64,000 nt of DNA from an uncultured Acidimicrobiia bacterium (GCA_963795125.1 CAWCGQ010000002.1:264025-328024), one strand, 5' to 3'. Positions 9,250 through 43,138 are shown, counted from the first letter of the stretch. Program-made: numbers and translations. Notes: a model not told the origin generated them from the sequence alone.

Positions 9250-9337
9250 GCACTGACCTCCGGCACGCGTTATCGCAGGAGCGCGCCCGTTCAGGACAAG
9301 CCAGAATGAGTTCAGGATCTAACCCGAGTCAGGTCAG

Positions 9338-10247: not shown

Positions 10248-10262
10248 GGCTCGCTACGCACC

Positions 10263-11561
10263 CTACTTAATCACCAGCAGCCGATAGTTGGCGGGATGCA
10301 GGAACTGAATTCCGGCATCGGTGAGGATGGCGTCATCCTCGATCGGCACCCGCAGCTTGGCTCCGCCCCACTCCGCAATCGGCGAATAGGCGAAGTATTC
10401 GAACGAGAACATGTGCTGCGCGTGCATGACGAACGTCGTCTGCAGCGGCTGCCAGGTGGTGAGCGACGGCCCGATGTCGTGGCCGGTGTTGCCGACCGGG
10501 ATGGAAGCCGTAGACCACGTCGGTCTTGTCGTCCTTGTTCGGCCGGTTGAATTCGATCACGCCGAAGCCGGCGGCGCGCAGTGCCGCGTCCATGGCCTTC
10601 ATGGTGTCGTCGGCGCGGACGCCGACCTTGATCGCCTTCTTCAGGACGTCGCGGACGCTGAGCGCCTTGTCGAACGCGCTCTGGATGCTCTTCGGCGGCG
10701 CGGTCTCGCCGGGCTTCAGCACGTAGGCGACGCGCTTGACGTCGGTGCCGAAGTTCATCAACTGCACGCCCCAGTCGATCATCATCACGTCGCCCGGCTG
10801 GATGATGCGCGAGCTCGAGGTCGCGACAATGCCGTTCGGGCCGGTGACGTAGACGGACGGCATGTCGAACTCGGAGCCGAGCGCGCGATCGAGCAGCCGA
10901 TCCTGCATCCACCACGCGACGTCTTCGAGCGTGGTCTTGCCGGGCGTAATCACTTCGTTCGACAGCGCCCGCTCGGTCAGCTGGATCGCGATGTTGGCGG
11001 CCTCGCCGAACGCGACGATCTCCGCCGCGACGCGGTGCGATCGAAAATCGGCGACCAGTTTTTCGGCGGAGACGAATCGCGACGCCATCGACTCGCCCAG
11101 CGTCGTCTTGAGATGCGCGAGCATCGTCACCGACAGGCCGTCGGCGGGGCCGATCTGCTCCGACATGTTGAGGCCGATGCGCTTGGGATTGCGCGCCTTG
11201 ACGTGCTCGGCGAGGGTCGAGGCCGCGGCGATGATGTCGTAGGCGCCCGACTCGGCCAGCAGGTAGCCGCTCGGGCCGAGCGCGGCCCGCTCGATGCGGT
11301 CGCCGCCGCGATCGGTGAAGACGTAGTAGCCGATGCCGGAGACGTAGCCGCGGCCGAGGTCGTTCCACAGCGGGTCGTAGTGGTTCTCTTTCACCGCGAC
11401 GATCCACATGTCGATGCCGTTGTCGCGCATCGCGCGCGGCAGGACCTGTTCGAACTTGTCGAGGCGAATCTGGCGTTGCATTTCCCAGCGGCGGCGGGCT
11501 TCCTGAGCGGAGGCTGGCAGCACCTGCAGCGGACGATGGCCATCGTGATCAACACGCGCAT
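10263..11561 (-). pseudogene. M24-family Xaa-Pro aminopeptidase/creatinase-like peptidase, 1-2 frameshifts
   Basis: ORF 10333..12105 carries the M24 body. The tail VGNTGHDIGPSLTT...DAGIQFLHPANYRLLVIK continues in another frame to the stop at 10263. An alternative start is MQRQIRL at 11481. Confidence 0.75.
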
Positions 11562-11671
11562 CAATTTCCCTGTTCAGGCGCCTGGCACCTTTACATTCCG
11601 TTGCACAGGTCGACGCGATTTCGGGCGACGATAACCGGCTGCCAAACCGTCGTTTGGCGCCCACAGACGTC

Positions 11672-13931
11672 ATGAACGTGCACATGCTACTCGTCCGCGT
11701 CGCTGGCGGCCGCATGTTTCTGTGAGCGTCGGCCGGACTGGCCGCGCGCGCAAACCCCGCCGGCCGGCGGCATTGATTACGACACCGCCCGCAGCCGAGC
11801 GGCGGCTGCCGGCGACCCGCGCACAGGGCCCGATCACGCTCGACGGCACGCTCGACGAGCCGTCGTGGGCGGCGGCGCCGCTGGCCATCAACTTCGTCCA
11901 GAACGATCCGCGCGAGGGCGAGCCGGCCACCTACGACACCGAAGTCAGGCTGCTCTACGACGATCGCGCCCTCTATATCGGCGTGTTCGCCAAGGATCCC
12001 GAACCCGGCCAGCATCATCGTCAACGAGCTGCGCAAGGACTTACAACACCGGCAGCAGCCGACGGCTTCCAGGTGGTGATCGATACCTTTCACGATCGAG
12101 CGCAACGGCTACCAGTTCGCGATCAATCCGATGCGGCGCCAAGTGGGACTCGCAGATGTCGAACGAGGGCCGCGACCAGAACTCGAACTGGGACGGCATC
12201 TGGGACGTCGGCACGCGCATCGGCGAGGACGGCTGGTACGCCGAGATCGAGATCCCGTTCAAGACGCTGAAGTTCGGACCCGAGGAGCTGCAGACCTGGG
12301 GCATCAATTTCCAGCGCCGGCTGCGCCGACGCAACGAGAACAGTTACTGGTCGCCGCTGCGCCGCATTCACCAGCTGTCGCGCGTGTCGATGGCCGGCAC
12401 CTACGAGGGCCTGCAGGGGCTGACGCCCGGCGCCAACGTCCGCGTCAAGCCGTACGCGCTCGCCAACCTCAACAAGCTCGCCGGGCGTGTCGCTCGACAA
12501 GGATTACGACGCCGGTTTCGACGTCAAGTACGGCGTGACCTCGGGCCTGACCTGGGACTTCACGGTCAACACCGACTTCTCGCAGGTCGAAGCCGACGAG
12601 CAGCAGGTCAACCTGACGCGCTTCAACCTGTTCTTCCCGGAGAAGCGCGACTTCTTCCTCGAGAACTCGGGCGTGTTCCAGTTCGGGTCGGGCAACACCG
12701 GCGGCGGGGGTGGCGGCGGCGGTGGCGGACGCCAGAACGCGTCGCAGGACATGATCTTCTTCTTCAGCCGGCAGATTGGCCTGTCGCCAACCGGCGACGC
12801 GATTCCGCTGCTGGCCGGGATCGCGCCTCACCGGCCGCGTCGGCGGCTGGTCGGTCGGCGCGCTCAACATCCAGCAGCGCGAGCAGCGCATCAGCCCGTC
12901 GACCAACTTCACGGCGCTGCGGGCGCGCCGCGACATCCTCGCCAACTCCGACGTCGGCGTGATGTTCCTGAACAAGGATCCGCAGGGCGGCGACTACAAC
13001 CGCGGCTTCGGCGCCGACGCCAACTTCCGCTTCTTCCGCGACCTGACGATGAATTTCGCCGGCGCGAAGAGCGCCACGCCGGCGTCGCGCGTGCCCGGCT
13101 CGGGCGACGACTGGTACTCGAAGAGCGGCTTCGGCTATCGCGGCAACGTGCTCGAAACCCGCGCGATGTACCAGACCATCGGCGCGCGCTTCAACGACGA
13201 GATGGGGTTCGTGCCGCGCGTCGGCGTGGACAACTTCGAGGGTTATTTCGGCACCCACCTGCGGTTCAAGAAGTTCTCGGGCTGGATGCGCGAGACCTTC
13301 CCGCATTTCCAGATCGAGAATTTCACCCGGCGCAACGGCGGCGGCCTCGAGTCGCGCTACATGGACTGGCACTGGCCGGTGACCTTCCAGAACAGCGCCT
13401 TCGTCGAGGTCGGCACCAACCCGAACGTCGAGGTGATCGACGATCGCTTCACCATCAACAGCCGGCGCGGCATCGTCGTCGAGCCCGGCCGCTACGACTT
13501 CAAGGAGCACTTCGTGCTCGCCAACAGCAACGCGGCGGCGCCGTTCTCGATGAACCTGCGCTACGGCAACGGCGAGTTCTACGACGGCTATCGCCGCAAC
13601 TACACGATCGGCGGCACCTGCCGGATGAACGAGCACATCAACGTGTCGCTGAGCGATCAGATCAACGACATCGACCTCGCAGTCGGGCTCATTCGTCACC
13701 CACCTGGTGACCGGCCGCGTCAATTACTACTTCAGCACCAAGGTGTTCGTGAACGCGCTGGTGCAGTACAACACCGACACCAACCAGTGGAGCTCGAACG
13801 TCCGGCTCGACATCATCCATCGCCCGCTCAGCGACATCTACCTGGTCTACAACGAGCGTCACGATTCGCGCAGCGGCGCGCTGATCTCGCGCGCGGTGAT
13901 CGCGAAGATGACCTACCTGTTCGCCTTCTAG
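11672..13931 (+). pseudogene. DUF5916 / carbohydrate-binding family 9-like outer-membrane protein, at least 9 frameshifts
   Basis: ITLDGTLDEPSWAAAP...FVQNDPREGEP at the N-terminus and a beta-barrel-like tail ending KMTYLFAF. The protein is rebuilt across ORFs 11722, 11865, 12131, 12487, 12776 and 13707. The start is uncertain. Confidence 0.65.
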
Positions 13932-27757: not shown

Positions 27758-29316
27758 GTGAAGCTCGCGGTCCCGAAAGAATGCCGCCCCGGCGAACGCC
27801 GGGTGGCGGTTACCCCTGAGAACGTCGCCCGCCTGGTCAAGATGGGCTTTGCCGTCGCCGTCGAGCACGACGCCGGCGCCGCCGCCTCATTTGGCGACGA
27901 GGATTACGTCGCGGCCGGCGCGGAGATCGTCGCCGACGCCCGCACCATCTGGCAGACCGGCGACATCCTCCTCAAGGTGCAGCCGCCGGAGATGCACCCG
28001 ACGCTCGGCGTGCACGAGGCCGAGCTGCTCCGCGAGCACGGCACGCTGATCTCCTTTCTCTATCCGGGCAAGAACACGGACTCGTCGCAGCGCCTGGCGG
28101 CGCGCAAGGCCACCGCGATCGCGGTCGATCAGATTCCGCGCATCTCGCGCGCGCAGAAGATGGACGCGCTGTCGTCGATGGCCAACATCGCCGGCTATCG
28201 CGCGGTGGTCGAAGCGGCGAGTTTCTACGGGCGCTTCTTCACCGGCCAGATGACGGCGGCCGGCCGCGTGCCGGCGGCCAAGGTGCTGGTGATCGGCGCC
28301 GGCGTGGCCGGCCTGGCGGCGATCGGCGCGGCGCGCGGCATGGGCGCGATCGTGCGCGCCTTCGACACGCGGCCGACGGTCAAAGAGCAAGTCAAGAGCA
28401 TGGGCGCCGAGTTCATCGAGCTCAACGTCGCCGAAGACGGCGAGGGCGCGGGCGGCTACGCCAAGGAGATGAGCCCGGCGTTCATCAAGGCCGAGATGGA
28501 GATGTTCGCCGCGCAGGCCAAGGACGTCGACATCATCATCACCACCGCGCTGATTCCCGAACCGGCCCGCGCCGATCCTGATCACCGAAGAGATGGTCAA
28601 GACGATGAAGAAGGGCTCGGTGATCGTCGACCTGGCCGCCGAGAACGGCGGCAACTGCGCGCTGACCGAGCCGGGCAAAGTCGTCGAGCACTACGGCGTT
28701 CACATCCTCGGCTACACCGATCTGCCGAGCCGCCTGGCGCCGACCGCCAGCCTGCTGTTCGGCAACAACCTGACGCACCTGCTCGCGGACCTGGGCGGCG
28801 CCAGCCATTTCCATCTCGATCTCGCCGACGAAGTGGTCCGCGGCGCGCTGGTGCTGCGCGACGGCGAGCTGCTGTGGCCGCCGCCGCCACGGCCGCCGGC
28901 GGCGCTGCCGCCGGATCCGAAGCTGGCGGCGGCCAAGGTCGCCCGCGCCGATCATCACCGAGAAGCCGAAGAGCGTCGCCGGACCTGGCGTTCGCCGTGC
29001 TCGGCGCGGCGGCGTTCGTCTGGCCTGGGCCTGGTCGCCCCGCCGGCGTTTCTGTCGCACCTCACGGTGTTCGCGCTCGCCTGCATCGTCGGCTGGCAGG
29101 TGGTGTGGAACGTGACGCCGGCGCTGCACACGCCGCTGATGAGCGTGACCAACGCGATCAGCGGCATCATCGTGATCGGCGGCATGCTGCAGGTCAGCGG
29201 CCCGCCGACGCTCGGCGGTCGTGATCCTCGGCGCCGCGGCGATTCTGCTCGCGACGATCAACATCGCCGGCGGCTTCCTGGTCACGCAGCGCATGCTGAA
29301 AATGTTCCGTCGATAG
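27758..29316 (+). pseudogene. pntA: NAD(P) transhydrogenase alpha subunit (dI plus membrane dII part in one gene), ~3 frameshifts
   Basis: QIPRISRAQKMDALSSMANIAGY, VLVIGAGVAGLAAIG and the TM tail [21 protein letters not shown]...[13 protein letters not shown] end at TAG 29314-16. Confidence 0.9.
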
Positions 29317-29319
29317 CGC

Positions 29320-30726
29320 ATGCCTGAGACCCTCGTCACCATCGCGTATCTCGCGGCCGGGCTGCTCTTCATCTTCAGCCTCGGCGGGCTCTCGAAGCAG
29401 GAGTCGGCGCGGCCGCGGCAACGTGCTCGGCATGCTCGGCATGCTGATCGCCGTCGCGGTCACCGCGTTCGGACCGCGCGTCGACAGTTACGCCGTGATG
29501 ACCGGCGCCCTGCTGGTCGGCGGCGCGATCGGCGCGGTGCTGGCGTCGCGGGTCGAGATGACCGCGATGCCGCAGCTGGTCGCGATCCTGCACAGCTTCG
29601 TCGGCGCGGCGGCGGTGCTGGTCGGCATCGCCACCGCGATGAATCACACGCAGGTGCTCGGCGGCGTCGAGGCGCGCATTCACGAAATCGAGATCTTCGT
29701 CGGCGTGTTCGTCGGCGCCATCACCTTTACCGGATCGGTCATCGCCTTCGGCAAGCTGCAGGGCCTGATCGGCAGCAAGCCGCTGCTGCTGCCGGGCCGG
29801 CACCTGATCAACCTGATCGCGATCCTGGCGTGCCTCTACCTCGGCTCGTGGTTCGTGTTCCACGGCAACTACTTCGCGCCGGTGTGGCCGCTGCTGGCCA
29901 TCACGGCGATCGCGTGCCTGCTCGGCATTCACCTGGTGATGGCGATCGGCGGCGCCGACATGCCGGTGGTGGTGTCGATGCTCAACAGCTACTCGGGCTG
30001 GGCGGCGGCGGCGGCGGGCTTCATGCTCGAGAACGACCTGCTGATCATCACCGGCGCGCTGGTCGGCTCGAGCGGCGCGATCCTGAGCTACATCATGTGT
30101 CACGCGATGAACCGCTCGTTCCTCAGCGTGATCCTCGGCGGCTTCGGCGCCGACGAGGGCGCGGCGCCCGGGCGGCGCCTCGGCGCAGCCGGCCGGCGAA
30201 GTGAAGGCGGTGACCGCGGAGGATACCGCCGACTTCCTGCGCGACGCCAAGCAACGTGGTGATCGTCCCCGGCTACGGCATGGCGGTGGCGCAGGCGCAG
30301 TATCCGCTCTACGAAGTCACCAAGCTGCTGCGCGAGAAGGGCGCCAACGTCCGCTTCGCGATCCACCCGGTGGCCGGCCGCCTGCCCGGGCACATGAACG
30401 TGCTGCTGGCCGAGGCCAAGGTGCCGTACGACATCGTGCTCGAGATGGAAGAGATCAACGACGACTTCAAGGACACCGACGTCGTCATCGTGATCGGCGC
30501 CAACGACATCGTCAATCCCGGCGCGCTCGACGATCCGTCCAGCCCGATTTACGGCATGCCGATCCTCGAAGTCTGGAAAGCCAAGACCTGCATCGTGATG
30601 AAGCGCGGCATGGCCAGCGGCTACGCCGGCGTCGACAATCCGCTGTTCTACAAGGACAACACCCGGATGCTGTTCGGCGATGCGAAGAAGATGATCGACG
30701 CGGTGCTGTCGGCGCTGAAGACCTAG
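29320..30726 (+). pseudogene. pntB: NAD(P) transhydrogenase beta subunit, ~3 frameshifts
   Basis: [38 protein letters not shown] and [21 protein letters not shown] lie across ORFs 29320, 29423, 30201 and 30256. Confidence 0.9.
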
Positions 30727-30766
30727 CCCGCGCCGGGCAGTCGGGAGGTCTCTGCTGGACGGGCCG

Positions 30767-31827
30767 CTAGACCGGCCCGAACGCCAGGAACGTCCGCGGA
30801 TTGTCCACCAGGATCGACTGCAGCGTCGCCTCGGGCAGGCCCGCCTTCAGCAGCATCGGCGCAAACACGGTGACCGCCTGTCCCAGTCCGCCGCCGCCGT
30901 TTTTCTTGAGGCCGCGGGCGTTCGAGAAGTCCGACGCAATCAGGATCTTCGACGCGTGGCCGGCCGCGACGATCGCCATGATCGTCGTCACCTTCTGCGC
31001 GTCGGGCACGAGCGCGATGGTGACGCGATCGAAACCGACGAACGCGCCGCGCTGCGCGATCTCGATCGGAATCTCCGCTTTCGGATCGTCGAGACAGCAG
31101 ACGTGGCCGATCGCCAGGTTGGCCGGCTTCACGCCGTTGGCGAGCAGCAGATCGAGCTGCTTGATGGCGGTGTCTTTCGGCACCGGGTTCTGCGTCGGGC
31201 GCGTGCCGGTGTAGGCGTTGTGCGTGAAGATCGGCAGCCCGGTGCGGGCGTGGGCCTTGGCGATCGCCGTGAACACCTTGCGCTCGTCGTCGGTCATCAC
31301 GCCGCCCTGCTGGCCGATCTCGCCGAAGGCGCCGAAGCGCGAGGCGGCGGCCTCCTTGGCGAGCTCGATCGGCGATCTGGTCCACCGACTTGGCGGCGAG
31401 GTCGGCGGGATAGGTGCGCTGCATGTAATAGCCGCCGCTGGCGATCACCGGCAGGCCGGACTCGGTCGAGATGCGCTTGAGCGCATCGACGCTGCGATTC
31501 ATGTCGGCGTGGCCGCCGTCGACGATCGCCGCAATGCCGTCGGCTTTGGCGGCGCGCGCCTCCTCGATCATCAGCGCCACGTCGTCGGTGAAGTGTTCGC
31601 TTGGCGCCGAGCGGAAAGCGCATCGACAGATGCTCGTGGAACAGCGACGGCCCCGACGCCAGTTCGTCCGGCGCCAGGTCCTTCAGGAGGGTGCGAATGA
31701 TCGCGCCCTTGGCAAACACCGGGCGCGCCGGCGCCTGCGCGGACAGCGTGGCTCCCGCGCGTCCGGCGACGCCGGCCGCGGCGCCGGCGCCAAGCATCGC
31801 GAGCGCTTCACGTCGTGTCAGGTTCAT
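30767..31827 (-). pseudogene. phosphotriesterase-family (PTE-like) metal hydrolase with a Tat-like signal, ~2 frameshifts
   Basis: MNLTRREALAMLGAGAAAG signal, HEHL motif (SLFHEHLSM), then IVDGGHADMNR and AIGHVCC...ASDF in other frames. Confidence 0.75.
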
Positions 31828-31857
31828 CGTCGGGCAGGGTAACATACGACACTTTCC

Positions 31858-32668
31858 ATGAATCACGTTTTCGCGGACCTGCCGCTCGCGCGGCGCCTCG
31901 AACAGACCGAGGGCCGCGGCAATGCCGCGTTTGTCGATGCGCAGGCGCGTCTCGATCCCAACTCCGGGCGCGATCTGGAAGGTCGCCGCCGGCACGTCGG
32001 TGATGTTCGCCGGCGTCGGCTCGCCGACTCACCCAGACCTTCGGGCTGGGATTGCACCAGCCGCTGAAGCGAAGACGACCTCGATGCGATCGAGCGTTTC
32101 TTCAAGACGCGCGGATCGGCGGTGAGCCACGAGGTCTGTCCGCTGGCGGGAGTCGGAGGTGTTTGCGACGCTGGCGCGGCGCGGCTATCGTGCCGGTCGA
32201 ACTGTCGAGCGTGCTCTATCAACCGATCGACGCCACCACGCAGCATTGCGGCCAACCCGCAGCTGACGGTGCGGCCGGTCGAGCCGCAGCGAAGGCGCGC
32301 TCTACGCCAGGGTGTCGGCTCAGGGATGGAGTGACCATCCCGAACTGATGCCGTATATCGAAGGCTTCGCGCGAGTTGAGCATGGCGTGCGCCACGCTGC
32401 TTCGTGGCGGAGCGCGACGGCCCGCCGATCGCGACCGCGGCGTTGTTCATGCACGAGGGCACGGCGCTGCTCGCCGGCGCCAGCACCGTCCCCGAAGGCC
32501 GGCGCCAGGGTGCGCAGAACGCGCTGCTCGACATTCGACTGCGGATGGCGGCATTAAACGGATGTAATCTGGCGATGATGGTGGCCGTCACCCGGCAGCG
32601 CCTCGCAGCGCAACGCCGAGCGGCAGGGATTCCGGATCGCCTATACACGAACCAAATGGCAACTGTAA
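31858..32668 (+). pseudogene. GNAT-family acetyltransferase-like protein, ~6 frameshifts
   Basis: The C-terminal piece ...GASTVPEGRRQGAQNALLDIRLRMAALNGCNLAMMVA...QRNAERQGFRIAYTRTKWQL fits a GNAT fold. The N-terminal pieces are fragmentary. Confidence 0.5.
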
Positions 32669-33833
32669 TTCACGCGCTCATCGTCGTGTTCGCCTGCCTC
32701 TCGCCGGCCGCCGCGCAGTCGACGCGCGTCGAAACCATCGCCGAGGAGCAGGCCGAGAAGGCCAAGGCGCTCGGCGCCGAGGGCCCGTCCGAGGCGGAGC
32801 GCATCATCCGGCGCGTGCTGCTGTCGCCGCTGCTCAACGGCGGCGAAGGTGTGTATCCGTGGTTCGGCAGCGTCTACCGCGGCACCGGCATGGCGGTCGG
32901 CGTCGGCTTCCTCACAGCGCTTCCAGAACGCGGCGTACTTCAATCTCCAGTCCGGCATCTCGATCAACAACTCGATGCTGGTGCGCGGCGGCGTTCGCGG
33001 CGCCGGAGTTGTGGCGCGGCAGGATGCAGTTCGAGACCAGCGCCCAGTGGCTCGACGCGCGCGGCGTGTCGTTCTACGGCTTCGGCCAGGATTCTTCCCG
33101 CGACCACCGCGAACGGTTCGACTACACGCCCAAGGACATTGGCGCCAGCCGCCACGATCAGGCCGATCCGATTCGTCGCGCTGACCGGCGGCTACACCTT
33201 CATGAATTTCGACACGCACCGCGACGCGCCGCGTTTCTCCGGCGTCGACGCGCCGGGCATGGACGAGGAGCTGAACTATCACGTCACGCGCGGCACCGTC
33301 GCGTTCGACTGGCGGCCGTCGCCCGTCCTACAGCACGCGCGGCGGCTACTACCGCGCCACGTTCGAGCGCAACCAGGAAGCCAAGAGCCTGCCGTATTCC
33401 TTCACCGCGCAGGAATACGAGGTCGTGCAGCTGGTGCCGCTGGTGCGCGAGCAGTTCGTGCTGGCCGCGCGCGGGCTGATGACGCTGACCACGCCCGATC
33501 GCGGCCACGAGGTGCCGGTGATGCTGTCGCCGTTTCTCGGCAGCGGCTCGCACGCTGCGGGGCTTCGCCAACCGTCGCTTCACCGATCGCAATCGCGTGC
33601 TGCTGACCGGCGAGTACCGCTGGCGGCCGTCGCGCTATCTCGACATGGCGCTGTTTCTCGACGCCGGACAGGTCGCGGCGCGACCGCCGCGATTTCGACT
33701 CTCGACGAGTTCGACGTCGCCTGGGGCATCGGCGCGCGCTTCCACGGCCCCACGTTTCAACGCCCTGCGCATCGAGGTCGCGCGCGGGCGGGAGGGCATC
33801 CGGCTGATCTTCACCGGATCGCAGCCATTCTGA
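32656..33833 (+). pseudogene. Omp85/BamA-family-like outer-membrane beta-barrel protein, ~5 frameshifts
   Basis: Signal MATVIHALIVVFACLSPAAAQ. The C-terminus ...LRGFANRRFTDRNRVLLTGEYRW...AWGIGARF...LRIEVARGREGIRLIFTGSQPF resembles a bacterial surface antigen barrel. Confidence 0.55.
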
Positions 33834-35491
33834 TGATCACCGCCTAGGCAGCCATCGTCCTGCTCGCACTGTCCGTGGTCGTCCTGTCGCTCGCTGACGC
33901 TGCGGCGCGCAGACGCGCCGCTTCTTTCCGGACGATCCGATCTGGCAGCGAGCCGATGACGCAGGACGTCAAGAACGCGGCGCGCTACGAGCCCGATCTC
34001 GCCTACCAGACGATCGAGAACCTGTTCTGGCGTCCGGGCGACAGCGTGCTCGGCCAGCGCGCCAAGAACGTCAACACCGTGGACGAAGTGCCGGACGGCC
34101 CGTACTTCGTGAACCGCGCCGGCCGCACGCCGCTGACGCCGGCGATCGTGGCGCGCGCCGCCAACACCGGCAACGGACCGGCGCCGGGCAAGTGGACGGT
34201 GGTCTCCGCGAAGAGCGACGGCGTCACGCCGGGCTTCACGATTCGCGACTCCGCGAACCAGCTGTGGTTCATCAAGTTCGATCCGCCCGGCTGGCGCGCG
34301 ATGGCGACCGGCAGCGAGATCGTCGCCGCCAAGTTGTTCTGGGCCGCCGGCTACCACACCGCCGAGTACCACATCGCGCAGCTGCGGCCGTCCGATCTGG
34401 TGATCGGCAAGGACACCCGCATCACGCCGGTGGGCGAAGCGCCGCGGGCGATGCACCAGGGCGACATCAGCTGGCTGCTCGGCGCGCGCCGATCGCGATG
34501 CCGACGGCTCGTATCGCGTCATCCTCAGCAAGGCCGCGCCGGGCCGGCCGGTCGGCCGCATCAAGTTCCACGGCACCCGCGCGGACGATCCGAACGACGT
34601 CGTCCCGCACGAACATCGCCGCGAGCTGCGCGGCTACTTCGTGTTCGCCGCCTGGCTCAATCACGTCGACGCCAAAGGCATCAACTCGCTGTCGACGCTG
34701 GTCACCGAGAACGGCCGCAGCTTCATCCGTAATTACCTGCTCGATTTCGGATCGGCGCTCGGCAGCGCCGCGATCGGGCCGCGCGAAGGCTGGGAAGGCT
34801 ACGAGGCGCTGGTCGAAGAGGCCGGCGCGATCCTCAGGCGGACGCTGTCGCTCGGCTTCAACATCCCGGTGTGGCGCACCCAGGATTACTTCGAGTCGCC
34901 GTCGATCGGCCGGCTGCCGCGCGATCACTCGAAGTGGAATCCCGAAGAGTGGTGCGCCGCACATCACCAACGCGGCGTTTCGTCACATGCGCGCCGACGA
35001 CACGTTCTGGGCCGCGACTGAAGCTGGCGTCGATCACCGACGAGATGATTCGCGCCGCGGTCGCCGAGGGCAAGTTCGGCGATCGCGAGTCGGAGGAGTT
35101 TCTCGCCAAGGCGATCTCGGATCGCCGCCTCCGCATCCTGCAGACCTTCCTGCCGAAGGTGAATCCGATCGTCGATCCGGCGCTGGATGACAAGCGGCCG
35201 GCTGTCGTTTCGAAACGCGGCCGTCGACGCCGCGGTGGCCCGGACCGGCACCGGGCTACCGGGCGCTCTGGTACACCTTCGACAACCAGACCGACAAGGC
35301 GACGCTCGTCGCCACCACCGAAGAAATCCGCAGAGTCCGATGGTCAATGCCGCCCATGCCGGCGTCGGAATACATCAAGGTGGACCTGTCGGCGGTGGGT
35401 GGGCCGGAGCCGTGGACCAGGCCGGTTTCCGCCTATTTCCGAAGAAATTCCGGGGGTTGGAGCGCTGGTCGGCTTCGAGCGGCAGCCTTGA
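33834..35491 (+). pseudogene. secreted hypothetical protein with a kinase-like catalytic-loop motif and DFG motif; ~7 frameshifts plus an in-frame TAG at 33846
   Basis: Signal-like AAIVLLALSVVVLSLA. The motifs are FAAWLNHVDAKGINSL (HxDxxxxN-like) and NYLLDFGSALGS (DFG). Both ends are uncertain. Confidence 0.5.
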
Positions 35492-35613
35492 GTGTACCCG
35501 GCAGGTAATAGTGTGGGCCGGGAGCGGCTTCCGCCGATAAAGGATCCCAAGGGTCATGAGATACTGGAACTCTGCTTTCCGGCACCCATACTGTTAAGAA
35601 AACGAGCGATTCG

Positions 35614-36451
35614 ATGTTGAAGCTTCGCATTCTCGCGACTGCCATTCTCGCGCTTGCCCTTGCCGTCCCGGCTTTTGCGCAGGCGACCCCACCGGCTCCG
35701 AACAGCGGACGAGGTGGCCGCAGTGACACCGGACGGTTCGAGCGATGGCCAGGCCGCCGCCGGCACCACCATCATCCCGCCACTGCCGGTGCCGCCGCCG
35801 ATGCCGGAAGGCAACCCGTTCAGGCTGTCGGCGGGCGATTTCAAACGTTTCTTCAGCGTCGACACCGGCAAGACCCTGGCCTACGTGTCCATGGTCGCCA
35901 TCACCGCGGCGCCGTGGGATCTTCAGGGCGTCAACAACGGCTTCAACATCCCGACCACGGTGTTTCAGTCCGGCAACCTGATCGGCAGTTTCGTGTTCCA
36001 GACCGGCGCCGGTTTCGCGACCTACGCCGCCGCCAAGTCGATCGGCAACGCGAAGGGCGCCCGCGTCGGCCGCGACATCGTCCGCGCACAGCTCCTCTCG
36101 CAGGCGATGGTGCAGGGGCTCAAGTTCACCGTCCGGCGCGAGCGTCCGGACGGCAGCAATCGCCAGTCGTTCCCATCGGGACATTCGTCGAGCGCCTTCG
36201 CGACGGCGACCGTGCTGCATCGCCATTACGGCTGGAAGATTGGCGTGCCCGCGTATGCGCTTGGCGGCTACGTTGCGCTGGCGCGCATGTCGTGGAACCG
36301 TCACCATGCGTCGGATGTGGTGATGGGCGCCGGCTTCGGCATCGCGGCGGCGCGCACCGTCACGATGACGGTCGCGAAGTCGAAGTTCAATCTCGGCGTG
36401 CAGCCGCAGGCGCGCGGCGCGTCGATCAACTTCACCAAGATCTACAAATAG
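35614..36451 (+). pseudogene. PAP2-family phosphatase, one frameshift near 35700
   Basis: Signal MLKLRILATAILALALAVPAFAQ. The three PAP2 motifs are KFTVRRERP, PSGH and ARMSWNRHHASD. Confidence 0.8.
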
Positions 36452-36461
36452 CGGACACGCC

Positions 36462-37304
36462 ATGAGGGGCATCGGCGGCGCTCTCGTCGTCTTGCTGCTG
36501 GCCGGGCCGCCGTGCCTGACGCCGGCCTACGCCCAGGCCGCCGCCGCCGCGCCTGCTCCCGAGCTGTCGGCTGAGCAGATCAAGACCTTCCTCAAACACG
36601 CCAAGGTCACTCGCACGCGCGGCACCGACAAGGGCGTGACCGCGCCGAAGCGGCTGACCCTGAGCGACGGCACGATCACGCACGACGCGGTGTTCCAGGC
36701 CATCGACGAGCGCCGCACCATCGCCACTCTTGGCGGCGGCGCCCGCGCCCAGACGATCGAGCTCAATTTCGTCGATTCCTACAAATACAACATCGCCGCC
36801 TACGAACTCGCGCGGCTGCTCGACCTCGATCAGATGATGCCGGTCTACGTCGAGCGGAGATGGAATGGCCAGCTCGGATCGATCAGCTGGTTCATGCCGA
36901 CGCTGATGGACGAGAGCGATCGGCTCAAGAAGAAGATCCAGCCGCCCAAGCCGACCGACTGGAACCACCAGATGTACCGGATGCGGGTGTTTTCGTCGCT
37001 CGTCCGCGACACCGATCGCAACCTGACCAACGTCCTGATCTCGCCCGAGTGGAAAGTGGTGATGATCGATTTCTCGCGTGCGTTCCGCCTGCAGCCGGAA
37101 CTGCAGCACCTCCAGGACCTGGGCAAGATCGATCGCCGGCTGCTCGCCAGGCTCGAGTCGCTGACGAGAGACTCGGTCCAGGAGGTGAGCAAGGACTGGC
37201 TGACCAGGAGTGAAATAGACGCGGTGATGGCGCGCCGCGACCTGCTGGTGGCGCATTTCAAGAAACTGGTCGCCGAGCTCGGCGAGGACAAAGTCCTCTA
37301 CTAG
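36462..37304 (+). CDS. secreted hypothetical protein with PI3K/PI4K-like (DRNxxN ... IDFS) motifs
   Basis: Intact 280-aa ORF. Signal ...LTPAYAQ. LVRDTDRNLTNVLISPEWKVVMIDFSRAF resembles an atypical-kinase catalytic and activation segment. Confidence 0.6.
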   Translation: MRGIGGALVVLLLAGPPCLTPAYAQAAAAAPAPELSAEQIKTFLKHAKVTRTRGTDKGVTAPKRLTLSDGTITHDAVFQAIDERRTIATLGGGARAQTIELNFVDSYKYNIAAYELARLLDLDQMMPVYVERRWNGQLGSISWFMPTLMDESDRLKKKIQPPKPTDWNHQMYRMRVFSSLVRDTDRNLTNVLISPEWKVVMIDFSRAFRLQPELQHLQDLGKIDRRLLARLESLTRDSVQEVSKDWLTRSEIDAVMARRDLLVAHFKKLVAELGEDKVLY

Positions 37305-39790
37305 CGCACCGTCGCCGGCGCCCGGCGATGACGGGTGGCGCGTTCGTAGGCGGCGGCAAGCTCGAGCAGGCGCTTGTCGTCCCACATCCTTCCAAGCAGC
37401 GAGATGCCCACCGGATAGCGGCCGCCGATGAAGCCGGCAGGCACGGTGACCTGCGGCAGACCGGTGGCCGCGCTTTCTTCGCAGGTGCCCGGCTCTGATC
37501 CATACCGCTCGGCGCCGCCTTCATGCGTGTGCGGGCGCGCCTGGTTCGCGGGATACAGCATGGCGTCGAGCTGCTGCTGCTCCATCAGGTCGACGAAGAT
37601 CTGCCGGAACGTTTCGCGGCCGGCAACGAAGCGGCGGATCGCGTCGTCGAGTGCCGCGCCGGCCGGCGTCGGCGCGAGCGCGCCCTCGAATCGACGGGCG
37701 CTCACCGGCGCCAGCTTCCCGGATGCGAGCAGATCCTGGATCGTCAGCACCTTGTCGCCGGGCTTCGCGCCGCGCGAAAGATAGGCCATCCAGCCGTCGC
37801 GCAGCGATCCGGGCGCCGCGCCGCGTGCCGCCGCATACCTGGCGTCGTAATCGGCAATCGCCACGTCGACGACGATGGCGCCGGCGGATCGGAGTTCCTT
37901 GATCACGCGCTCCATGTTGGCGGCGACCTCGCGCTCGCCGGTGAAGCCGGCAAAGCGCTGGCGGAACGCGCCGATGCGCTTGCCTGTCAGCGTCGCGGCA
38001 TCGAGACCGGACGCAAACGATCCGGAGATATGTTTCGCCGCGTCCACGGTCACCGGATCTTCAGGATCGAATCCGGTCACGAGGTCGAGCGCCATCGCCA
38101 CATCGCGCACCGATTTGCCCATCGGCCCCACGGCATCGTTGTAGGTGTTGAGCGGCATCACGCCGGCACGGCTGGTCAACCCTCGCGTAGTGCGGATCGT
38201 CGCCAGCGCGGCGAAGGAGGCGGGGTTCGACAGCGAATTGCAGGTGTCGGTGCCGAACGCGAGCGCGGCCAGACTGGCGGCGACGGCGGTGGCGCTGCCG
38301 CCGCTCGATCCCGAGGTGCTCAGCGACGGGTCGTAGGCGTTGCCGACGGTGCCGCCGACGGTGCTGATGCCGAAATCGCCGAAGGGAAACTCATCGAGAT
38401 TGGCCTTGCCGAGGACCACCGCGCCGCCTCGCTTCATGCCCGCGGCGACGCGCGAATCCAGGCGCGGGCGATGATCGACCAGCGCCAGCGATCCGCTGGT
38501 GGTGGGCAGCCCGGTGGCGTCGATGTTGTCCTTGAAGACGATCGGAACCCCGTGAAACGGGCTGCGCACCGCACCGGCGGCGCGCTCGGCATCGCGGTCC
38601 CGCGCGTCGGCGATGGCACGCGGATTAATCGACAGCACCGACCGGAACGTCGGGCCGTGGCGATCGTAGCGGGACAGCCGCGCCAGGTAGTCGCGGGTGA
38701 TGTCTTCGGAGGTGATCAGGTTGCGGGTCATCGCGTCTTGGAGTTCGGAGACAGTTTTTTCAAAGACCGTGAAGTTCGACGAGGGTTCTACGGACGTTCT
38801 ACGGCCGTTCGACGATGGGAGTGTCCAGTTCGAAATCTGTGATTGTTGAAGCGGTGTGAGACCGCGCAGATCCGGCGATTTCACGAGCGAGGCAGCGATC
38901 TCGGCCACGCGTCTGATCTCGGATCCGGCGGGAGGAATTCTGGCGTCCGGCTCTGAGTAGACAGGTGCGCCGGTCAACAGCCCGTCCTTGTAAGGAACCG
39001 GATAGCCGCCGCGTGGATCGTAGACTTCGCTCAGCCCCTTCACGACAAACGTCATCAACGCGCGCGTCTCGCCCGGACCCAGCCGCAGCGTGAACACGTA
39101 GCCAATGTGCGCGGGGTCGAATCCGGGCCAGCGGCTCTCGAACGGATCGCCGTAGATGTCGCCAACCGCCGTCAGCACTCCGGGCGTCGATCCCAGCACG
39201 TGCGCCGAGGGCCCGTGCCCCGACGGACCCAGCGCCGGATTGGCCGCGCCCGCCGCGTTCTGCATCACCACCACGTAGGCGTCCGACAGATCGATCCGCC
39301 GATCGCCGCTGGCGGTGGCGGCGATGGCGAGCTGGCCGCCGTCCTCGTAGGCGCCGGCGGCGCCGCCCCAGGCAATCTGGACGATGCGATCCTCGCTCGT
39401 GGAGTTGGTGAAGGTGTCGAGATAACGAAGATACTGCGTGTCTTTCGCGGTGGTGACCCCGCGGGCCACCACGATCCCTTCGGTCAGCACCGGCGTCACC
39501 GAGTCGAATCGTCCCGCGCCATCGTGATGCAGGCCGAAGCCCCTCAGGTAGTGATTGCGCGTGAGCACCAGGTCGTCGGCGCGGCGCACCTGCAGCTTGA
39601 GATAGCCGAAGCCATTGAACGGGTTGGCGCGCCCGCCGGTGGCAATGCCGCCGCTGTCCTGGGCCCAGGGGCTGGTGTCCTGGATATCCCAGTACTGACC
39701 GTCCGCGGATGGCACGCGCGTCACGCCCGCAAGTTGCGCCACGGTGGTCGCGGCGAACGTTGCGATCAACAGACCTTTCAAGAGTCGCAT
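37301..39790 (-). CDS. secreted amidase-signature enzyme with a ~340-aa N-terminal domain of unknown function
   Basis: Intact ORF with probable start MRLLKGLLIATFAATTVAQ at 39790. The AS-family motifs are VPIVFKDNID and SGSSGGSATAVA. Confidence 0.85.
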   Translation of the reverse strand: MRLLKGLLIATFAATTVAQLAGVTRVPSADGQYWDIQDTSPWAQDSGGIATGGRANPFNGFGYLKLQVRRADDLVLTRNHYLRGFGLHHDGAGRFDSVTPVLTEGIVVARGVTTAKDTQYLRYLDTFTNSTSEDRIVQIAWGGAAGAYEDGGQLAIAATASGDRRIDLSDAYVVVMQNAAGAANPALGPSGHGPSAHVLGSTPGVLTAVGDIYGDPFESRWPGFDPAHIGYVFTLRLGPGETRALMTFVVKGLSEVYDPRGGYPVPYKDGLLTGAPVYSEPDARIPPAGSEIRRVAEIAASLVKSPDLRGLTPLQQSQISNWTLPSSNGRRTSVEPSSNFTVFEKTVSELQDAMTRNLITSEDITRDYLARLSRYDRHGPTFRSVLSINPRAIADARDRDAERAAGAVRSPFHGVPIVFKDNIDATGLPTTSGSLALVDHRPRLDSRVAAGMKRGGAVVLGKANLDEFPFGDFGISTVGGTVGNAYDPSLSTSGSSGGSATAVAASLAALAFGTDTCNSLSNPASFAALATIRTTRGLTSRAGVMPLNTYNDAVGPMGKSVRDVAMALDLVTGFDPEDPVTVDAAKHISGSFASGLDAATLTGKRIGAFRQRFAGFTGEREVAANMERVIKELRSAGAIVVDVAIADYDARYAAARGAAPGSLRDGWMAYLSRGAKPGDKVLTIQDLLASGKLAPVSARRFEGALAPTPAGAALDDAIRRFVAGRETFRQIFVDLMEQQQLDAMLYPANQARPHTHEGGAERYGSEPGTCEESAATGLPQVTVPAGFIGGRYPVGISLLGRMWDDKRLLELAAAYERATRHRRAPATVR

Positions 39791-39811
39791 CGCGTGACTA
39801 TACTCCGCCAC

Positions 39812-42800
39812 ATGAAGAGAGCCGCCGTCCTACTCGCCCTCTGTGTCGCCGTCACGGTCTCGCTCGGCGGCCAGGATCGCCAGGCGCAGGACGACGCCGC
39901 CAAGCCGGCAGAGGGTTTCACGCTCAAGACCGCCGAGACCATCACCTTCACGACCGACGAAGTGACGTGGATGCAGGTCGACGTCTCCCCGGATGGGCGG
40001 ACGATTCTTTTCGATCTTCTCGGCGATCTCTACACCCTGCCGATCGGCGGTGGCGAGGCCACGCGCATCATCGGCGGGTTGCCATTCGAGAGCCAGCCGA
40101 CCTGGTCGCCGGACGGCAGGACCATCGCGTTTCTGACCGATCGCACCGGCGTCGAAAACCTGTGGATCGCCAACGCGGATGGGTCGAATCCACGCGCCGT
40201 CAGCAAGGACGGGCGCACCAGCGACCGGCCGCAGATCATGGTGTCGCCGGCGTGGACGCCCGACGGCAATTACATCGTCGTCTCGAAATCGCGGCCGCCA
40301 GAGCCGGGCACCTTCGGGCTGTTCATGTATCACCGCGACGGCGGCACGGGCGTGCGGGTCGGTCCGGCGCCGCCGCCGCAGCCGGCGCCCGAGGCGCAGG
40401 GACCGCCGCCCGCGCCACCGACCAACAAGATGGGCGCGGTGGTGTCGCCCGACGGCCGATTCATCTATTACACGCAGCGCACCGGCACGTTCACCTACAA
40501 CGCGCGGTTCCCGATGTGGCAGATCTATCGCCACGACACCGAAACCGGCGACGTCACGCAGATCACCAACGCCCAGGGCAGCGCGATTCGTCCGGCGATT
40601 TCTCCCGACGGCAGGTCGATGGTGTTCGGCACGCGCCACAAGGCGCAGACCGGCCTGCGTGTCCGCGACCTCGAGACCGGCGCGGAGCGATGGCTGGCCT
40701 ACCCGGTAACACGCGACGATCAGGAATCGCGCGCCAGCCGCGACACGCTGCCGCGCTACGACTTCATGCCCGACGGCAAGTCGTTGATCGTGCCCGTCGA
40801 CGGCAAGCTGCAGCGCATCGATCTTGCCAGCGGGCAGGCCACGCCGATCCCCTTCACCGCCAAAGTCGAGGCCGAGATCGCCCCGCGCGTCTACACGCCG
40901 GTGCGGGTGGACGACGGCGCGTCGGTCCGCGCCAGGCTGGTGCGCTGGCCCACGCTGTCTCCGGACGGGTCGACGCTGGTGTTCGGCGCGATGAACCGGC
41001 TGTACGTGCAGGCCTACCCTGACGGGTCGCCGCGACTGCTCACCACCGGCGAGCCGAGTGGCTCGTCACCGTCGCACGAAGGCGAGTTCATGCCGTCGTG
41101 GTCGCCGGACGGGCGCTCGATCGTGTACGTCACCTGGACGACGACCGGCGGACAGATCAAGCGAGTGGCGGCAACCGGCGGCCGGCCGGAAACCTTGACG
41201 CCCAATCACGGCTACTACCTCGACCCGACCTACTCGCCCGATGGATCCCGCATCGTCTATCTGGCCGGCGCCGCCTCCGACCAGTTGTATTCGATCCTGA
41301 TGGACACGCCGCCGGAGAACGATCTCGAGGGCGACGAGCATGCCGCGCGCGAGATTGGCGGGGTCAGCCCGCCCAACACGCTCGAGATTCGCTCGATGCC
41401 CGCGGCCGGCGGCGCCTCGACGCTGATCGCGTCGGCGCAAGGTGGACGGGGTCCGCACTTCGCGCGCAACGACGGCGCGCGCGTCTATTTCACGACCAAT
41501 CGCGGCCTGCAGTCGATCACCATGGACGGCTACGATCGACGCACGCATCTGCGCATCACCGGCACCGGGCCCGGCAACAATCCACCCGGCGCCGACGACA
41601 TCAGGCTGTCGCCCGACGGCAGCCGCGCCTTCGTCAGTATCCAGGGCCGGCACTACCTGGTCACCGCGCCGCGCGCGGGCCGCGAAACGGTGGAGGTCAA
41701 AATCCAGGGCCGCGGCGAGGCCGCCACCGTGCCGGTCAAGGCCATGTCGCTCGAAGGCGGCGACTACCTCCGCTGGAGCGGCGATGGCCGTGCCGTCACG
41801 TGGGCCTGGGGCGCGCAGTTCTTCCGCCAGCCGATCGATGGCGCCGAGCCGGCCAGGCTCGATGTCGTGGTCGAGTTGCCGCGATCGCGGCCGAGCGGGT
41901 CGGTGCTGCTGACCGGCGCGCGCATCATCACCATGCAGGGCACCGACGTGATCCCGCAGGGCGATGTGCTGGTCACCGGCAATCGCATCGCCGCCGTCGG
42001 CAGGCGCGGCTCGCTCACCGTTCCCCCGAACACGCGCACCATCAGCGTCGCCGGCAAGACCATCATGCCCGGGCTGGTCGACGCGCACTCGCACATGTGG
42101 CCGCCGCGCGGCGTGCACCAGACCGAGGTGTGGCAGTACCTCGCGAACCTCGCCTACGGCGTGACCACCACGCGCGATCCGCAGACCTCGACGCCCGATG
42201 TGTTCGCCTACGCCGACATGGTCGACAGCGGCATGATTCCCGGTCCGCGCATCTATGCGACCGGACCCGGCGTGTTCGCGGGCAGCGGCATCGACAGCCG
42301 CGAGGCCGCCTTCAATTACATCAAGCGCTACAAGGACGCCTATCGCACCAACACGCTCAAGCAGTACGTCGCCGGCGATCGCATTGTCCGCCAGTGGATC
42401 ATCGAGGCCTGCAAGGAGTACGGCATCACCGCGACGATTGAAGGCTCGCTCGATCTGAAGCTCAACCTGACGCAGATGGCGGACGGCTACTCGGGGCAGG
42501 AGCACAGCCTGCCGATCGCGCCGCTCTACAAGGATGTGACGACGTTTGTCGCCAGGACCAAAACGTTTTACACGCCGACCATCCTGGTCGCGTACGGCGC
42601 GCCGTGGTCGGAGAACTTCTGGTTCGAGACCGAGTCACCGGCCAACGACGCCAAGCTCAAGAAGTGGGTGCCGTGGGAACTGCTCGACGGCATGGTGCGT
42701 CGCCGGCCGCAGTGGTTCCTGCCGGAGGAGTACGGACATCAACTGATCGCCAAGGGGGTTGCCGACATCGTGCACGCGGGCGGCCGCGCCGGCCTCGGCA

Positions 42801-43138
42801 GTCACGGCCAGATGCAGGGCCTCGGCGCGCACTGGGAGACGTGGAACCTCGCGTCCGGCGGGCTCACGCCGCATGAAACGCTCCAGGTCGTCACGCTGTT
42901 CAGCGCCGAAGCGATCGGGCTGCAGCAGGACCTCGGCTCGCTCGAGCCGGGCAAGCTCGCCGACCTGCTGGTGCTCGATCGCAACCCGCTCGAGAGCATC
43001 CGCAACACCAACTCGATCCGCTACGTGATGAAGAACGGCGAGCTCTACGAAGGGGACACCCTCAACATGGTGTGGCCGCAAGCGAAGCCGTTGCCGAAAC
43101 AGTTCTGGTGGAACACCGAACCGAACCCGCAGCGGTAA
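39812..43138 (+). CDS. TolB-like beta-propeller repeats fused to an amidohydrolase-family domain (~1108 aa)
   Basis: Signal MKRAAVLLALCVAVTVSLGG. Repeated SPDG(R/S) propeller motifs. The C-terminal half has PGLVDAHSHMW and a metal-dependent hydrolase-like tail. The ORF upstream of 39812 is antisense shadow. Confidence 0.85.
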   Translation: MKRAAVLLALCVAVTVSLGGQDRQAQDDAAKPAEGFTLKTAETITFTTDEVTWMQVDVSPDGRTILFDLLGDLYTLPIGGGEATRIIGGLPFESQPTWSPDGRTIAFLTDRTGVENLWIANADGSNPRAVSKDGRTSDRPQIMVSPAWTPDGNYIVVSKSRPPEPGTFGLFMYHRDGGTGVRVGPAPPPQPAPEAQGPPPAPPTNKMGAVVSPDGRFIYYTQRTGTFTYNARFPMWQIYRHDTETGDVTQITNAQGSAIRPAISPDGRSMVFGTRHKAQTGLRVRDLETGAERWLAYPVTRDDQESRASRDTLPRYDFMPDGKSLIVPVDGKLQRIDLASGQATPIPFTAKVEAEIAPRVYTPVRVDDGASVRARLVRWPTLSPDGSTLVFGAMNRLYVQAYPDGSPRLLTTGEPSGSSPSHEGEFMPSWSPDGRSIVYVTWTTTGGQIKRVAATGGRPETLTPNHGYYLDPTYSPDGSRIVYLAGAASDQLYSILMDTPPENDLEGDEHAAREIGGVSPPNTLEIRSMPAAGGASTLIASAQGGRGPHFARNDGARVYFTTNRGLQSITMDGYDRRTHLRITGTGPGNNPPGADDIRLSPDGSRAFVSIQGRHYLVTAPRAGRETVEVKIQGRGEAATVPVKAMSLEGGDYLRWSGDGRAVTWAWGAQFFRQPIDGAEPARLDVVVELPRSRPSGSVLLTGARIITMQGTDVIPQGDVLVTGNRIAAVGRRGSLTVPPNTRTISVAGKTIMPGLVDAHSHMWPPRGVHQTEVWQYLANLAYGVTTTRDPQTSTPDVFAYADMVDSGMIPGPRIYATGPGVFAGSGIDSREAAFNYIKRYKDAYRTNTLKQYVAGDRIVRQWIIEACKEYGITATIEGSLDLKLNLTQMADGYSGQEHSLPIAPLYKDVTTFVARTKTFYTPTILVAYGAPWSENFWFETESPANDAKLKKWVPWELLDGMVRRRPQWFLPEEYGHQLIAKGVADIVHAGGRAGLGSHGQMQGLGAHWETWNLASGGLTPHETLQVVTLFSAEAIGLQQDLGSLEPGKLADLLVLDRNPLESIRNTNSIRYVMKNGELYEGDTLNMVWPQAKPLPKQFWWNTEPNPQR

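Follow-up and report, generated by a model that had tools for sequence, protein, structure and literature searches.

A conserved Omp85 and kinase-like gene pair at the core of a candidate envelope phosphoryl-transfer operon of Vicinamibacterales

The window analysed here is a 64-kb stretch of an uncultured bacterium recorded as Acidimicrobiia (GCA_963795125.1, CAWCGQ010000002.1:264025-328024) and taken here as an acidobacterium from soil, and coordinates below are positions in this window unless a locus is named with them. The segment studied (31858-37304, plus strand, GC about 67%) holds five co-directional genes: acT (31858-32671), for a GNAT-like acyltransferase; Omp85 (32656-33833), for a POTRA-less ('noNterm') 16-strand barrel; g2 (33833-35491), for a Sec-exported protein of about 545 residues with a kinase-like fold; PAP2 (35614-36451), for a phosphatase; and g4 (36462-37304), for a minimal kinase-like protein of 280 residues. 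The 3' end of acT overlaps the start of Omp85 by 16 nucleotides, the stop codon of Omp85 and the start codon of g2 overlap as ATGA, and g4 starts 10 nucleotides past PAP2. A first-pass annotation of this DNA had described the last four genes as a layout of their own; these genes, their order and direction, and the motifs quoted for them were all recovered at the places given, to which we add acT as a fifth co-directional gene and a start of g2 at 33833 rather than 33834. Export was called by hydropathy and pattern rules, which are heuristic. By these rules the products of Omp85, g2, PAP2 and g4 each show a single hydrophobic peak at the N-terminus with an AxA/AQA-type site behind it, and acT has neither a hydrophobic N-terminus nor a signal peptide. 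The signal peptides are kept in the orthologs, with a lipobox instead in about half of the Myxococcota-type g2 homologs, and the earlier proposal of export signals on all four genes therefore holds.

The reading frames of the window copies are broken at many places, which we located by frameshift-aware protein-to-DNA alignment against the intact syntenic ortholog L002. This gave 10 indels in acT, 8 insertions in Omp85, 10 indels in g2, one +1 insertion in PAP2 (near 35698) and none in g4, which is intact; nearly all are +1 single-base insertions, and the amino-acid sequences obtained once the frames are restored are otherwise well conserved with respect to L002. Frame breaks are not confined to the segment: upstream, pntA (27758-29327) is likewise broken, the PTE-like gene at 30723-31995 (minus strand) also switches frame, and switches of third-position GC between frames run throughout the 64 kb. 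Because the breaks span the whole window and affect pntA as well, they are assembly errors. A pseudogene reading was rejected, since nearly all are +1 insertions, restoring the frame yields intact proteins and the breaks are window-wide. The pattern suggests an unpolished long-read assembly with uneven correction; clean stretches are few (about 18.3-20.5, 35.0-39.8, 41.2-44.6 and 50.9-54.2 kb), and no homopolymer association was seen by eye for the indels of the five genes. One lesion is of another type than the insertions: codon 5 of g2 (33845-33847), within the signal peptide, reads TAG in frame (MITA, stop, AAIVLL...), probably through a base error.

The product of the intact acT ortholog matches Pfam Acetyltransf_1 just above the cutoff (E 1.7e-4, 22.3 bits against 20.7), and acT lies directly upstream of Omp85 in 15 of 19 loci of the clade defined below. 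The next gene encodes an Omp85/BamA-like barrel, as had been proposed: the intact ortholog in L002 reaches 32.1 bits with PF01103 (gathering cutoff 24) and matches NF047779 at E 2e-15, and the window copy aligns to it over its full length after frameshift repair. Its signal peptide, MATVIHALIVVFACLSPAAAQ, ends before S, and the barrel carries both lid-lock motifs, LRGF (33555-33566) and FLDAG (33654-33668), as well as a C-terminal aromatic beta-signal (...SQPF, at 33830). These lid-lock motifs have been defined as (L/M)RG(W/Y/F) on loop 6 and FxDxG on beta13 (PMC11358297). No POTRA or ShlB-type domain matched the intact ortholog at E<=5, and only about 65 residues, including a short stretch that looks helical by eye, separate the signal peptide from the barrel. 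These two features place the protein in the 'noNterm' Omp85 group, about whose function little is understood (PMC11358297).

The partner of this barrel, g2, belongs to a family of 3088 clusters at 50% identity. Along the window copy follow a conserved motif directly past the signal peptide (FFPDDPIW, 33922; FFPDDPIW / RFAN..P in the family), a Gly-rich loop (SAKSDGVTPGF, 34205), a lysine in WFIKFD (34265), a glutamate in TGSEIVAAK (34307), the family signature DDPNDVVPHEHRRELRG (34584), the catalytic loop HVDAKGIN (34662-34685), LLDFGSALG (34737-34763, with DFG at 34743) and an RR helix (35120), all on the plus strand; the C-terminus is an FN3-like beta-sandwich. Conservation was scored on an alignment of 52 members with 29-63% identity to the reference, in which DDPNDxxPHxxRRxxR is invariant and the Gly-rich loop, beta3 Lys, alphaC Glu, H274-x-D276-x4-N281 and D301-F-G come in the canonical order and spacing. 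K145 is kept in 41 of the 52, D147 in 51, E/D159 in 42, D276 in 42, N281 in 45 and D301 in 50, and a minority of members lacks D276 or H274. Within the clade g2 identity is 82-91%. Apart from one apparent Omp85-g2 fusion, no extra domains were found in long g2 homologs.

The smaller protein, g4 (signal peptide ...TPAYA, followed by QA), has a reduced version of the same set of motifs: DTDRNLTN (37008), MIDFSRAFR (37062) and an RRD helix (37230), with a glutamine at the beta3 position (HDAVFQAID, 36681), again all on the plus strand. D185, N187, N190 and D203 are invariant in its family, and many arginines are invariant in both the g2 and the g4 families. The beta3 Lys (Q, S or K at that position) and the alphaC Glu (variable) are not conserved, which is why g4 may not be a conventional kinase. 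When diverse family alignments were compared with hhalign, g4 and g2 matched in two collinear segments, one over the catalytic loop with the DFG (E 0.017), the other over the C-terminal RRD helix (E 0.0012); with shallow alignments (A1 against A2, Neff 1.6) the comparison was uninformative. By these two collinear matches the two proteins are distant paralogs. Tandem duplicates of distant g4 homologs occur in some Acidobacteriota (L027:7896-9552, L031:7851-9580).

The motif pairs of g2 and g4 had been taken to indicate a kinase fold, and profile and structure comparisons point the same way, with nothing else recurrent. Below threshold, 9 of the 52 g2 members match HipA_2 and 4 match HipA_C, and in those members that were examined the matches fall where the N-lobe begins; the best g2-family score with the HipA models (PF20613 / PF07804) is 18.1 bits against a cutoff of 27. 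Among 26 diverse g4 members, 11 match PI3_PI4_kinase below threshold and others match ABC1, IPK, HipA_2 or TCAD9; with PF00454 g4 scores 12.6-16 bits (cutoff 27.1), and there are weak NCBIfam matches to TIGR03843 (E 4e-4) and to the Kdo kinase KdkA (E 2e-3). Foldseek searches with the AlphaFold models, which are of low confidence, returned Fam20A/C first for g4 (E 4e-4, probability 1.0), then CtkA, and for g2 Fam20C (E 0.025), followed by the amicoumacin kinase AmiN and the APH aminoglycoside kinases, with FN3-like matches for the C-terminal sandwich; TM-scores for both models were 0.2-0.4. The two lines of evidence agree, since Fam20 has been described as a distant relative of HipA (PMC6829671). 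From the motifs, the recurrent sub-threshold HipA and PI3/PI4-kinase matches and the Foldseek top matches, we assign g2 and g4 to a protein-kinase-like fold, a statement about the fold rather than about membership of a named family.

Between the two kinase-like genes, the PAP2 product scores 46.8 bits with PF01569 (cutoff 27.2) and, as described earlier, has all three catalytic motifs: KFTVRRERP (36122), PSGH (36173) and ARMSWNRHHASD (36281). The superfamily set is KxxxxxxRP, PSGH and SRxxxxxHxxxD, and the third reads (A)RMSWNRHHASD here. The signal peptide (...AVPAFA, followed by QA) is succeeded by an unusual Pro/Ala-rich linker of about 60 residues that precedes the catalytic motifs. Past the signal peptide, Kyte-Doolittle maxima over 19 residues are 1.0-1.44, below 1.6 on this hydropathy heuristic, and the best PDB matches, themselves weak (E 0.07-0.5), are for the most part to soluble class A acid phosphatases and include LpxE. 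The protein is thus probably a soluble enzyme. The first-pass annotation had likened it to LpxT, which uses undecaprenyl pyrophosphate; this analogy is weak, given the hydropathy behind the signal peptide, where no segment is of transmembrane grade, and the prevalence of soluble acid phosphatases among the PDB matches.

Gene-order conservation was examined in 46 genome loci with g4 relatives and 80 metagenome loci with g2 relatives (40-86% identity), identity classes being measured against the reference g2 P0121 and the clade being defined by g2 identity above 60%. The order acT-Omp85-g2-PAP2-g4 is found in about 20 genome loci and returns at all g4 identities of about 58% and above, g4 homologs more remote than this being solitary; because of this recurrence, the five-gene arrangement is more than chance. 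The genes are not, however, conserved to the same depth. In 63 of 64 metagenome loci, with g2 identities as low as 40%, the next gene upstream of g2 is Omp85, whereas PAP2 comes after g2 in 15 of 52 loci and g4 does so in 5 of 39, both being in essence restricted to this clade. By identity class, Omp85 was present in 21/21 loci above 60%, in 12/12 at 47-60% and in 27/28 at or below 47%; PAP2 in 30/30, 6/16 and 2/31; g4 in 26/27, 0/10 and 0/26; and a TLC gene, anywhere in the locus, in 0/32, 8/21 and 8/52. One representative reads as an Omp85-g2 fusion, and in L084 PAP2 stands upstream of Omp85, an independent second arrangement. The conserved core is therefore Omp85 and g2, with PAP2 as a recurrent accessory and with g4 and acT specific to the Vicinamibacterales clade. 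Of the earlier grouping of the four genes into one cluster, the order is conserved within the clade, while outside it the unit shrinks to the Omp85-g2 pair.

Over all loci, the only recurrent neighbours were Omp85, PAP2, g4, TLC, a membrane Ser/Thr kinase and a TonB-receptor-like gene, and no immunity-like gene was conserved among them. The Ser/Thr protein kinase gene was seen in or beside TLC-Omp85-g2 clusters in two gene orders (in L060, L068 and L112, in all three between TLC-HEAT and TLC, and at L131:9906-10847 and L064:7395-9092); inspected by eye, the L068 product is hydrophobic in its N-terminal region and shows canonical kinase motifs, and the L131 gene has Pfam Pkinase matches. A gene for an outer-membrane protein of about 820 residues, resembling either a TonB-dependent receptor or a protein with a carboxypeptidase-regulatory domain, lies directly downstream of g2 or PAP2 in L062, L065, L075, L079 and L082, and L068 has a convergent copy.

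The neighbour that bears most on function is TLC (PF03219, the ATP/ADP transporter family), found in 16 Omp85-g2 loci of other lineages, Myxococcota included; L132 and L133, both counted, are the same contig from two sources. Scores of 36-70 bits (Pfam gathering 21) were obtained for every short TLC gene and for the two TLC-HEAT fusions with Pfam matches that were tested, and one further TLC-HEAT-like protein (L131) was recognised by jackhmmer only. In 10 loci TLC lies within 40 nucleotides of Omp85 or g2 (about 200 in L104), and its placement varies: in some it precedes Omp85, in some it follows g2, and in others it is divergently oriented. A Kofleriaceae genome has the order Omp85-g2-TLC-Pkinase-TLC/HEAT; another order is TLC-Metallophos-Omp85-g2-Omp85-g2, with TLC-HEAT, a cyclic-nucleotide (cNMP)-binding gene and PhoD nearby (L132). 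In that locus the NTT-HEAT fusion (9664-12405, minus strand) is followed by the cNMP-binding gene (8664-9674, minus strand), and both adjoin the tandem Omp85-g2 duplication. TLC-HEAT fusions also adjoin distant g4 homologs (L026, L028, L029, L031, L032), and carriers of this family are encoded next to g4 homologs in Terriglobia. The succession of NTT-HEAT and a cNMP-binding gene has been described for free-living bacteria (Major et al. 2017, PMC5381601), where the role of NTTs, NTT-HEAT(-cNBD) fusions included, is an open question, and the characterised NTTs are importers (PMC5381601). An ATP/ADP exchanger in an ATP-making cell would presumably move ATP outward. As the cores of sister lineages are operonic with above-threshold TLC/NTT genes, the linkage favours a supply of ATP to the periplasm over the non-ATP phosphate donor that had been suggested, for which we found no direct support.

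Taken together, these observations lead us to a tentative reading, which we rate somewhat short of an even chance: the cluster would be an operon, conserved in Vicinamibacterales, that serves extracytoplasmic phosphoryl transfer and is built on a widespread two-gene core, and its function is what we infer from the genes. The g2 protein would be exported and would dock to, or be displayed by, its cognate Omp85 barrel (homologs of g2 in Myxococcota are often lipoproteins); as a kinase that depends on a nucleotide, it would phosphorylate a component of the envelope or surface, be it protein, glycan or lipid. PAP2 might serve as the opposing or recycling phosphatase, and g4, as a degenerate paralog, might be a regulatory or non-canonical partner of g2, as Fam20A is beside Fam20C. 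The nucleotide would most likely be ATP, crossing the inner membrane through a TLC/NTT-family carrier that, in the genome of the window, would be encoded outside the 64 kb or be absent. A more specific version seems to us unlikely, if worth stating: a diderm counterpart of the eukaryotic secretory-pathway kinases, in which a Fam20/HipA-like g2 sits on a POTRA-less Omp85 and receives periplasmic ATP via an NTT/TLC antiporter, PAP2 opposes it and, in Vicinamibacterales, a Fam20A-like g4 modulates it. The first-pass annotation had also arrived at an envelope phospho-module with kinase folds; of that, the fold, the export and the gene order were each examined and stand, while the four-gene unit, the LpxT analogy and the non-ATP donor find less support.

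Several results weigh against an extracytoplasmic kinase system. No TLC gene is present in the 64-kb window, nor within about 8 kb of the cluster in 32 clade loci. On the side of the fold, no kinase Pfam model reaches its threshold for g2 or g4, PDB sequence-profile searches with the g2 and g4 alignments gave nothing meaningful, and the AlphaFold models of g4 and g2 have predicted local distance difference test (pLDDT) values of 55 and 61, with the catalytic segment of g2 below 50. A comparison with E. coli HipA by hhalign gave no significant signal, and we therefore claim no membership of the HipA family. The module is moreover dispensable and was deleted repeatedly, since some lineages have dropped Omp85-g2-PAP2 and yet keep acT-g4: the two genes are adjacent in L012, L027, L046 and L048, the last of which retains a g2 remnant. 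The link of g4 to the cluster may thus be partly inherited synteny. The acT-g4 adjacency was itself considered as a functional link and set aside, a deletion scar being more likely in view of the L048 remnant. A g2 fragment is also held by L019 (7398-7796).

Four other explanations were weighed. The near-obligate and translationally coupled pairing of Omp85 and g2 would also fit a secretion system resembling two-partner secretion, in which the barrel exports g2 (and perhaps g4 and PAP2) as a kinase-fold effector that acts in or on other cells with the ATP of the target, in the manner of H. pylori CtkA or HipA-type toxins. Protein assembly or translocation is the role of every Omp85/TpsB protein that has been characterised (PMC11358297), the Foldseek matches include CtkA, and the conserved motif right past the g2 signal peptide could be read in this sense. 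The barrel, however, has no POTRA domains, and TPS-domain similarity was not noticed in g2, though no search was aimed at it; many g2 homologs are lipoproteins, hence retained on the cell; there is no conserved immunity-like gene, and the operonic TLC transporters and the membrane Ser/Thr kinase are left unexplained. We regard secretion as a minor but real possibility. A further possibility is scavenging, with capture of extracellular nucleotides or phosphoesters at the outer membrane, processing by PAP2 (by Metallophos or PhoD elsewhere), import by TLC, and kinase-like proteins that bind or convert the nucleotides. The arrangement TLC-Metallophos-Omp85-g2 with PhoD nearby in L132, the PAP2 association, the many invariant arginines of the g2 and g4 families and the import direction of characterised NTTs (PMC5381601) all agree with it; yet Omp85 barrels are not known as solute channels, most loci have no phosphatases, and the conserved Asp/Asn/DFG set points to transfer chemistry rather than to binding alone, which makes scavenging rather unlikely.

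The model of the first-pass annotation places the catalysis in PAP2, as a phosphotransferase that uses a non-ATP donor such as undecaprenyl pyrophosphate or pyrophosphate (PPi) for lipid or glycan modification, the kinase-fold proteins binding or positioning the substrate. PAP2 is indeed exported with intact catalytic motifs, class A acid phosphatases are able to use PPi as a phosphate donor, g4 is without the ATP-positioning Lys/Glu pair, and no TLC gene is near the cluster in the clade. Against this, PAP2 is present in only 15 of 52 Omp85-g2 loci and so cannot be the core catalyst, and by hydropathy no transmembrane-grade helices are evident in it, unlike in LpxT and PgpB; g2 keeps a complete set of nucleotide-binding and catalytic motifs, and sister loci encode nucleotide carriers. 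We consider this model distinctly unlikely. If catalysis were absent altogether, g2 and g4 could be pseudoenzymes acting as partners or plugs of a specialised Omp85, as LptE does in LptD, and PAP2 would be incidental. The lipoprotein forms of g2, its C-terminal beta-sandwich, the degenerate N-lobe of g4 and the minority of g2 members lacking D276 or H274 would suit such a role, which we nonetheless hold to be very unlikely given the 82-91% identity within the clade, the catalytic residues kept in most of the 52 diverse members and the linkage to TLC. An exported, nucleotide-dependent g2 kinase associated with its barrel remains the reading that we prefer.

Two further genes lie directly downstream of the cluster. 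A convergent gene for an amidase-family protein of 836 residues (37301-39811, minus strand) and a large Tricorn/PD40-amidohydrolase gene (39107-43138, plus strand) are both syntenic in related genomes and have no evident link to the cluster. Scans for promoters and terminators in the window performed no better than on shuffled sequence.

The components of the system are members of known superfamilies, while the two kinase-like families are unannotated: among several hundred listed homologs of g2 and g4 none has a Pfam domain, and all are named 'hypothetical'. In the literature searched we found the Omp85-g2 pairing undescribed, and no description either of exported HipA-like or periplasmic kinases of the g2/g4 type, of an Omp85-kinase pairing, or of a link between NTTs and Omp85 or exported kinase-like proteins. 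What has emerged in g2 is a very large Pfam-less family of exported proteins that are kinase-like in fold, have kept the catalytic signature and are nearly always paired with Omp85. The periplasm is generally held to be ATP-free, and to our knowledge ATP-dependent phosphorylation there is essentially undescribed. If the more specific reading, the counterpart of the secretory-pathway kinases, is true, regulated, ATP-dependent phosphorylation of envelope or surface components would take place outside the cytoplasm, and the NTT and NTT-HEAT genes of free-living bacteria, so far unexplained, would gain a function. If the proposed coupling is real, it would join three unknowns in one testable system, namely noNterm Omp85 barrels, the NTTs of free-living bacteria and the exported kinase-like proteins, and would make envelope phosphorylation accessible to study in phyla that abound in soil (Acidobacteriota, Myxococcota).

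Each part of the cluster resembles a known system and departs from it. The barrel shares with Omp85/TpsB proteins (type Vb) the PF01103 domain, the lid-lock motifs, the C-terminal beta-signal and an operonic partner gene; the two periplasmic POTRA domains of TpsB are absent from it, and a TPS domain was not recognised in g2, although no search was aimed at it. PAP2 shares PF01569, the three motifs and export with the class A acid phosphatases PhoN/PhoC and with LpxE, LpxT and PgpB, but the transmembrane helix bundle of LpxT, LpxE and PgpB (about six helices in the LpxT/PgpB type) is not evident in it; it differs also by its Pro/Ala-rich N-terminal linker, and its matches to both PAP2 subgroups are only weak. 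The NTT/TLC transporters of free-living bacteria have counterparts in related loci, where PF03219 proteins are encoded above threshold and NTT-HEAT precedes a cNMP-binding gene, whereas the window has none. HipA-like and PI3/PI4-like kinases are approached by the sub-threshold matches to HipA_2/HipA_C for g2 and to PI3_PI4_kinase, TIGR03843 and KdkA for g4, and the secreted H. pylori CtkA by its structural match to g4, which has a DxxN-type catalytic loop followed by IDF; HipA, however, is a cytoplasmic toxin with an antitoxin, whereas g2 and g4 are exported and barrel-paired, with all scores below curated cutoffs. Fam20 proteins (Fam20C, Fam20B and the pseudokinase Fam20A) belong to the eukaryotic Golgi, have no detectable sequence similarity to g2 or g4 and no Omp85 or PAP2 partners; family membership is not established. 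Like g2 and g4, they nevertheless combine a kinase fold with a signal sequence and work outside the cytosol, and they are the top Foldseek match of g4 and the best kinase match of g2, from low-confidence models in both cases. Fam20 kinases depend on ATP brought into their compartment by an antiporter, and the pair of Fam20C and Fam20A finds a parallel in the cluster, where a complete g2 is encoded beside its degenerate paralog g4.

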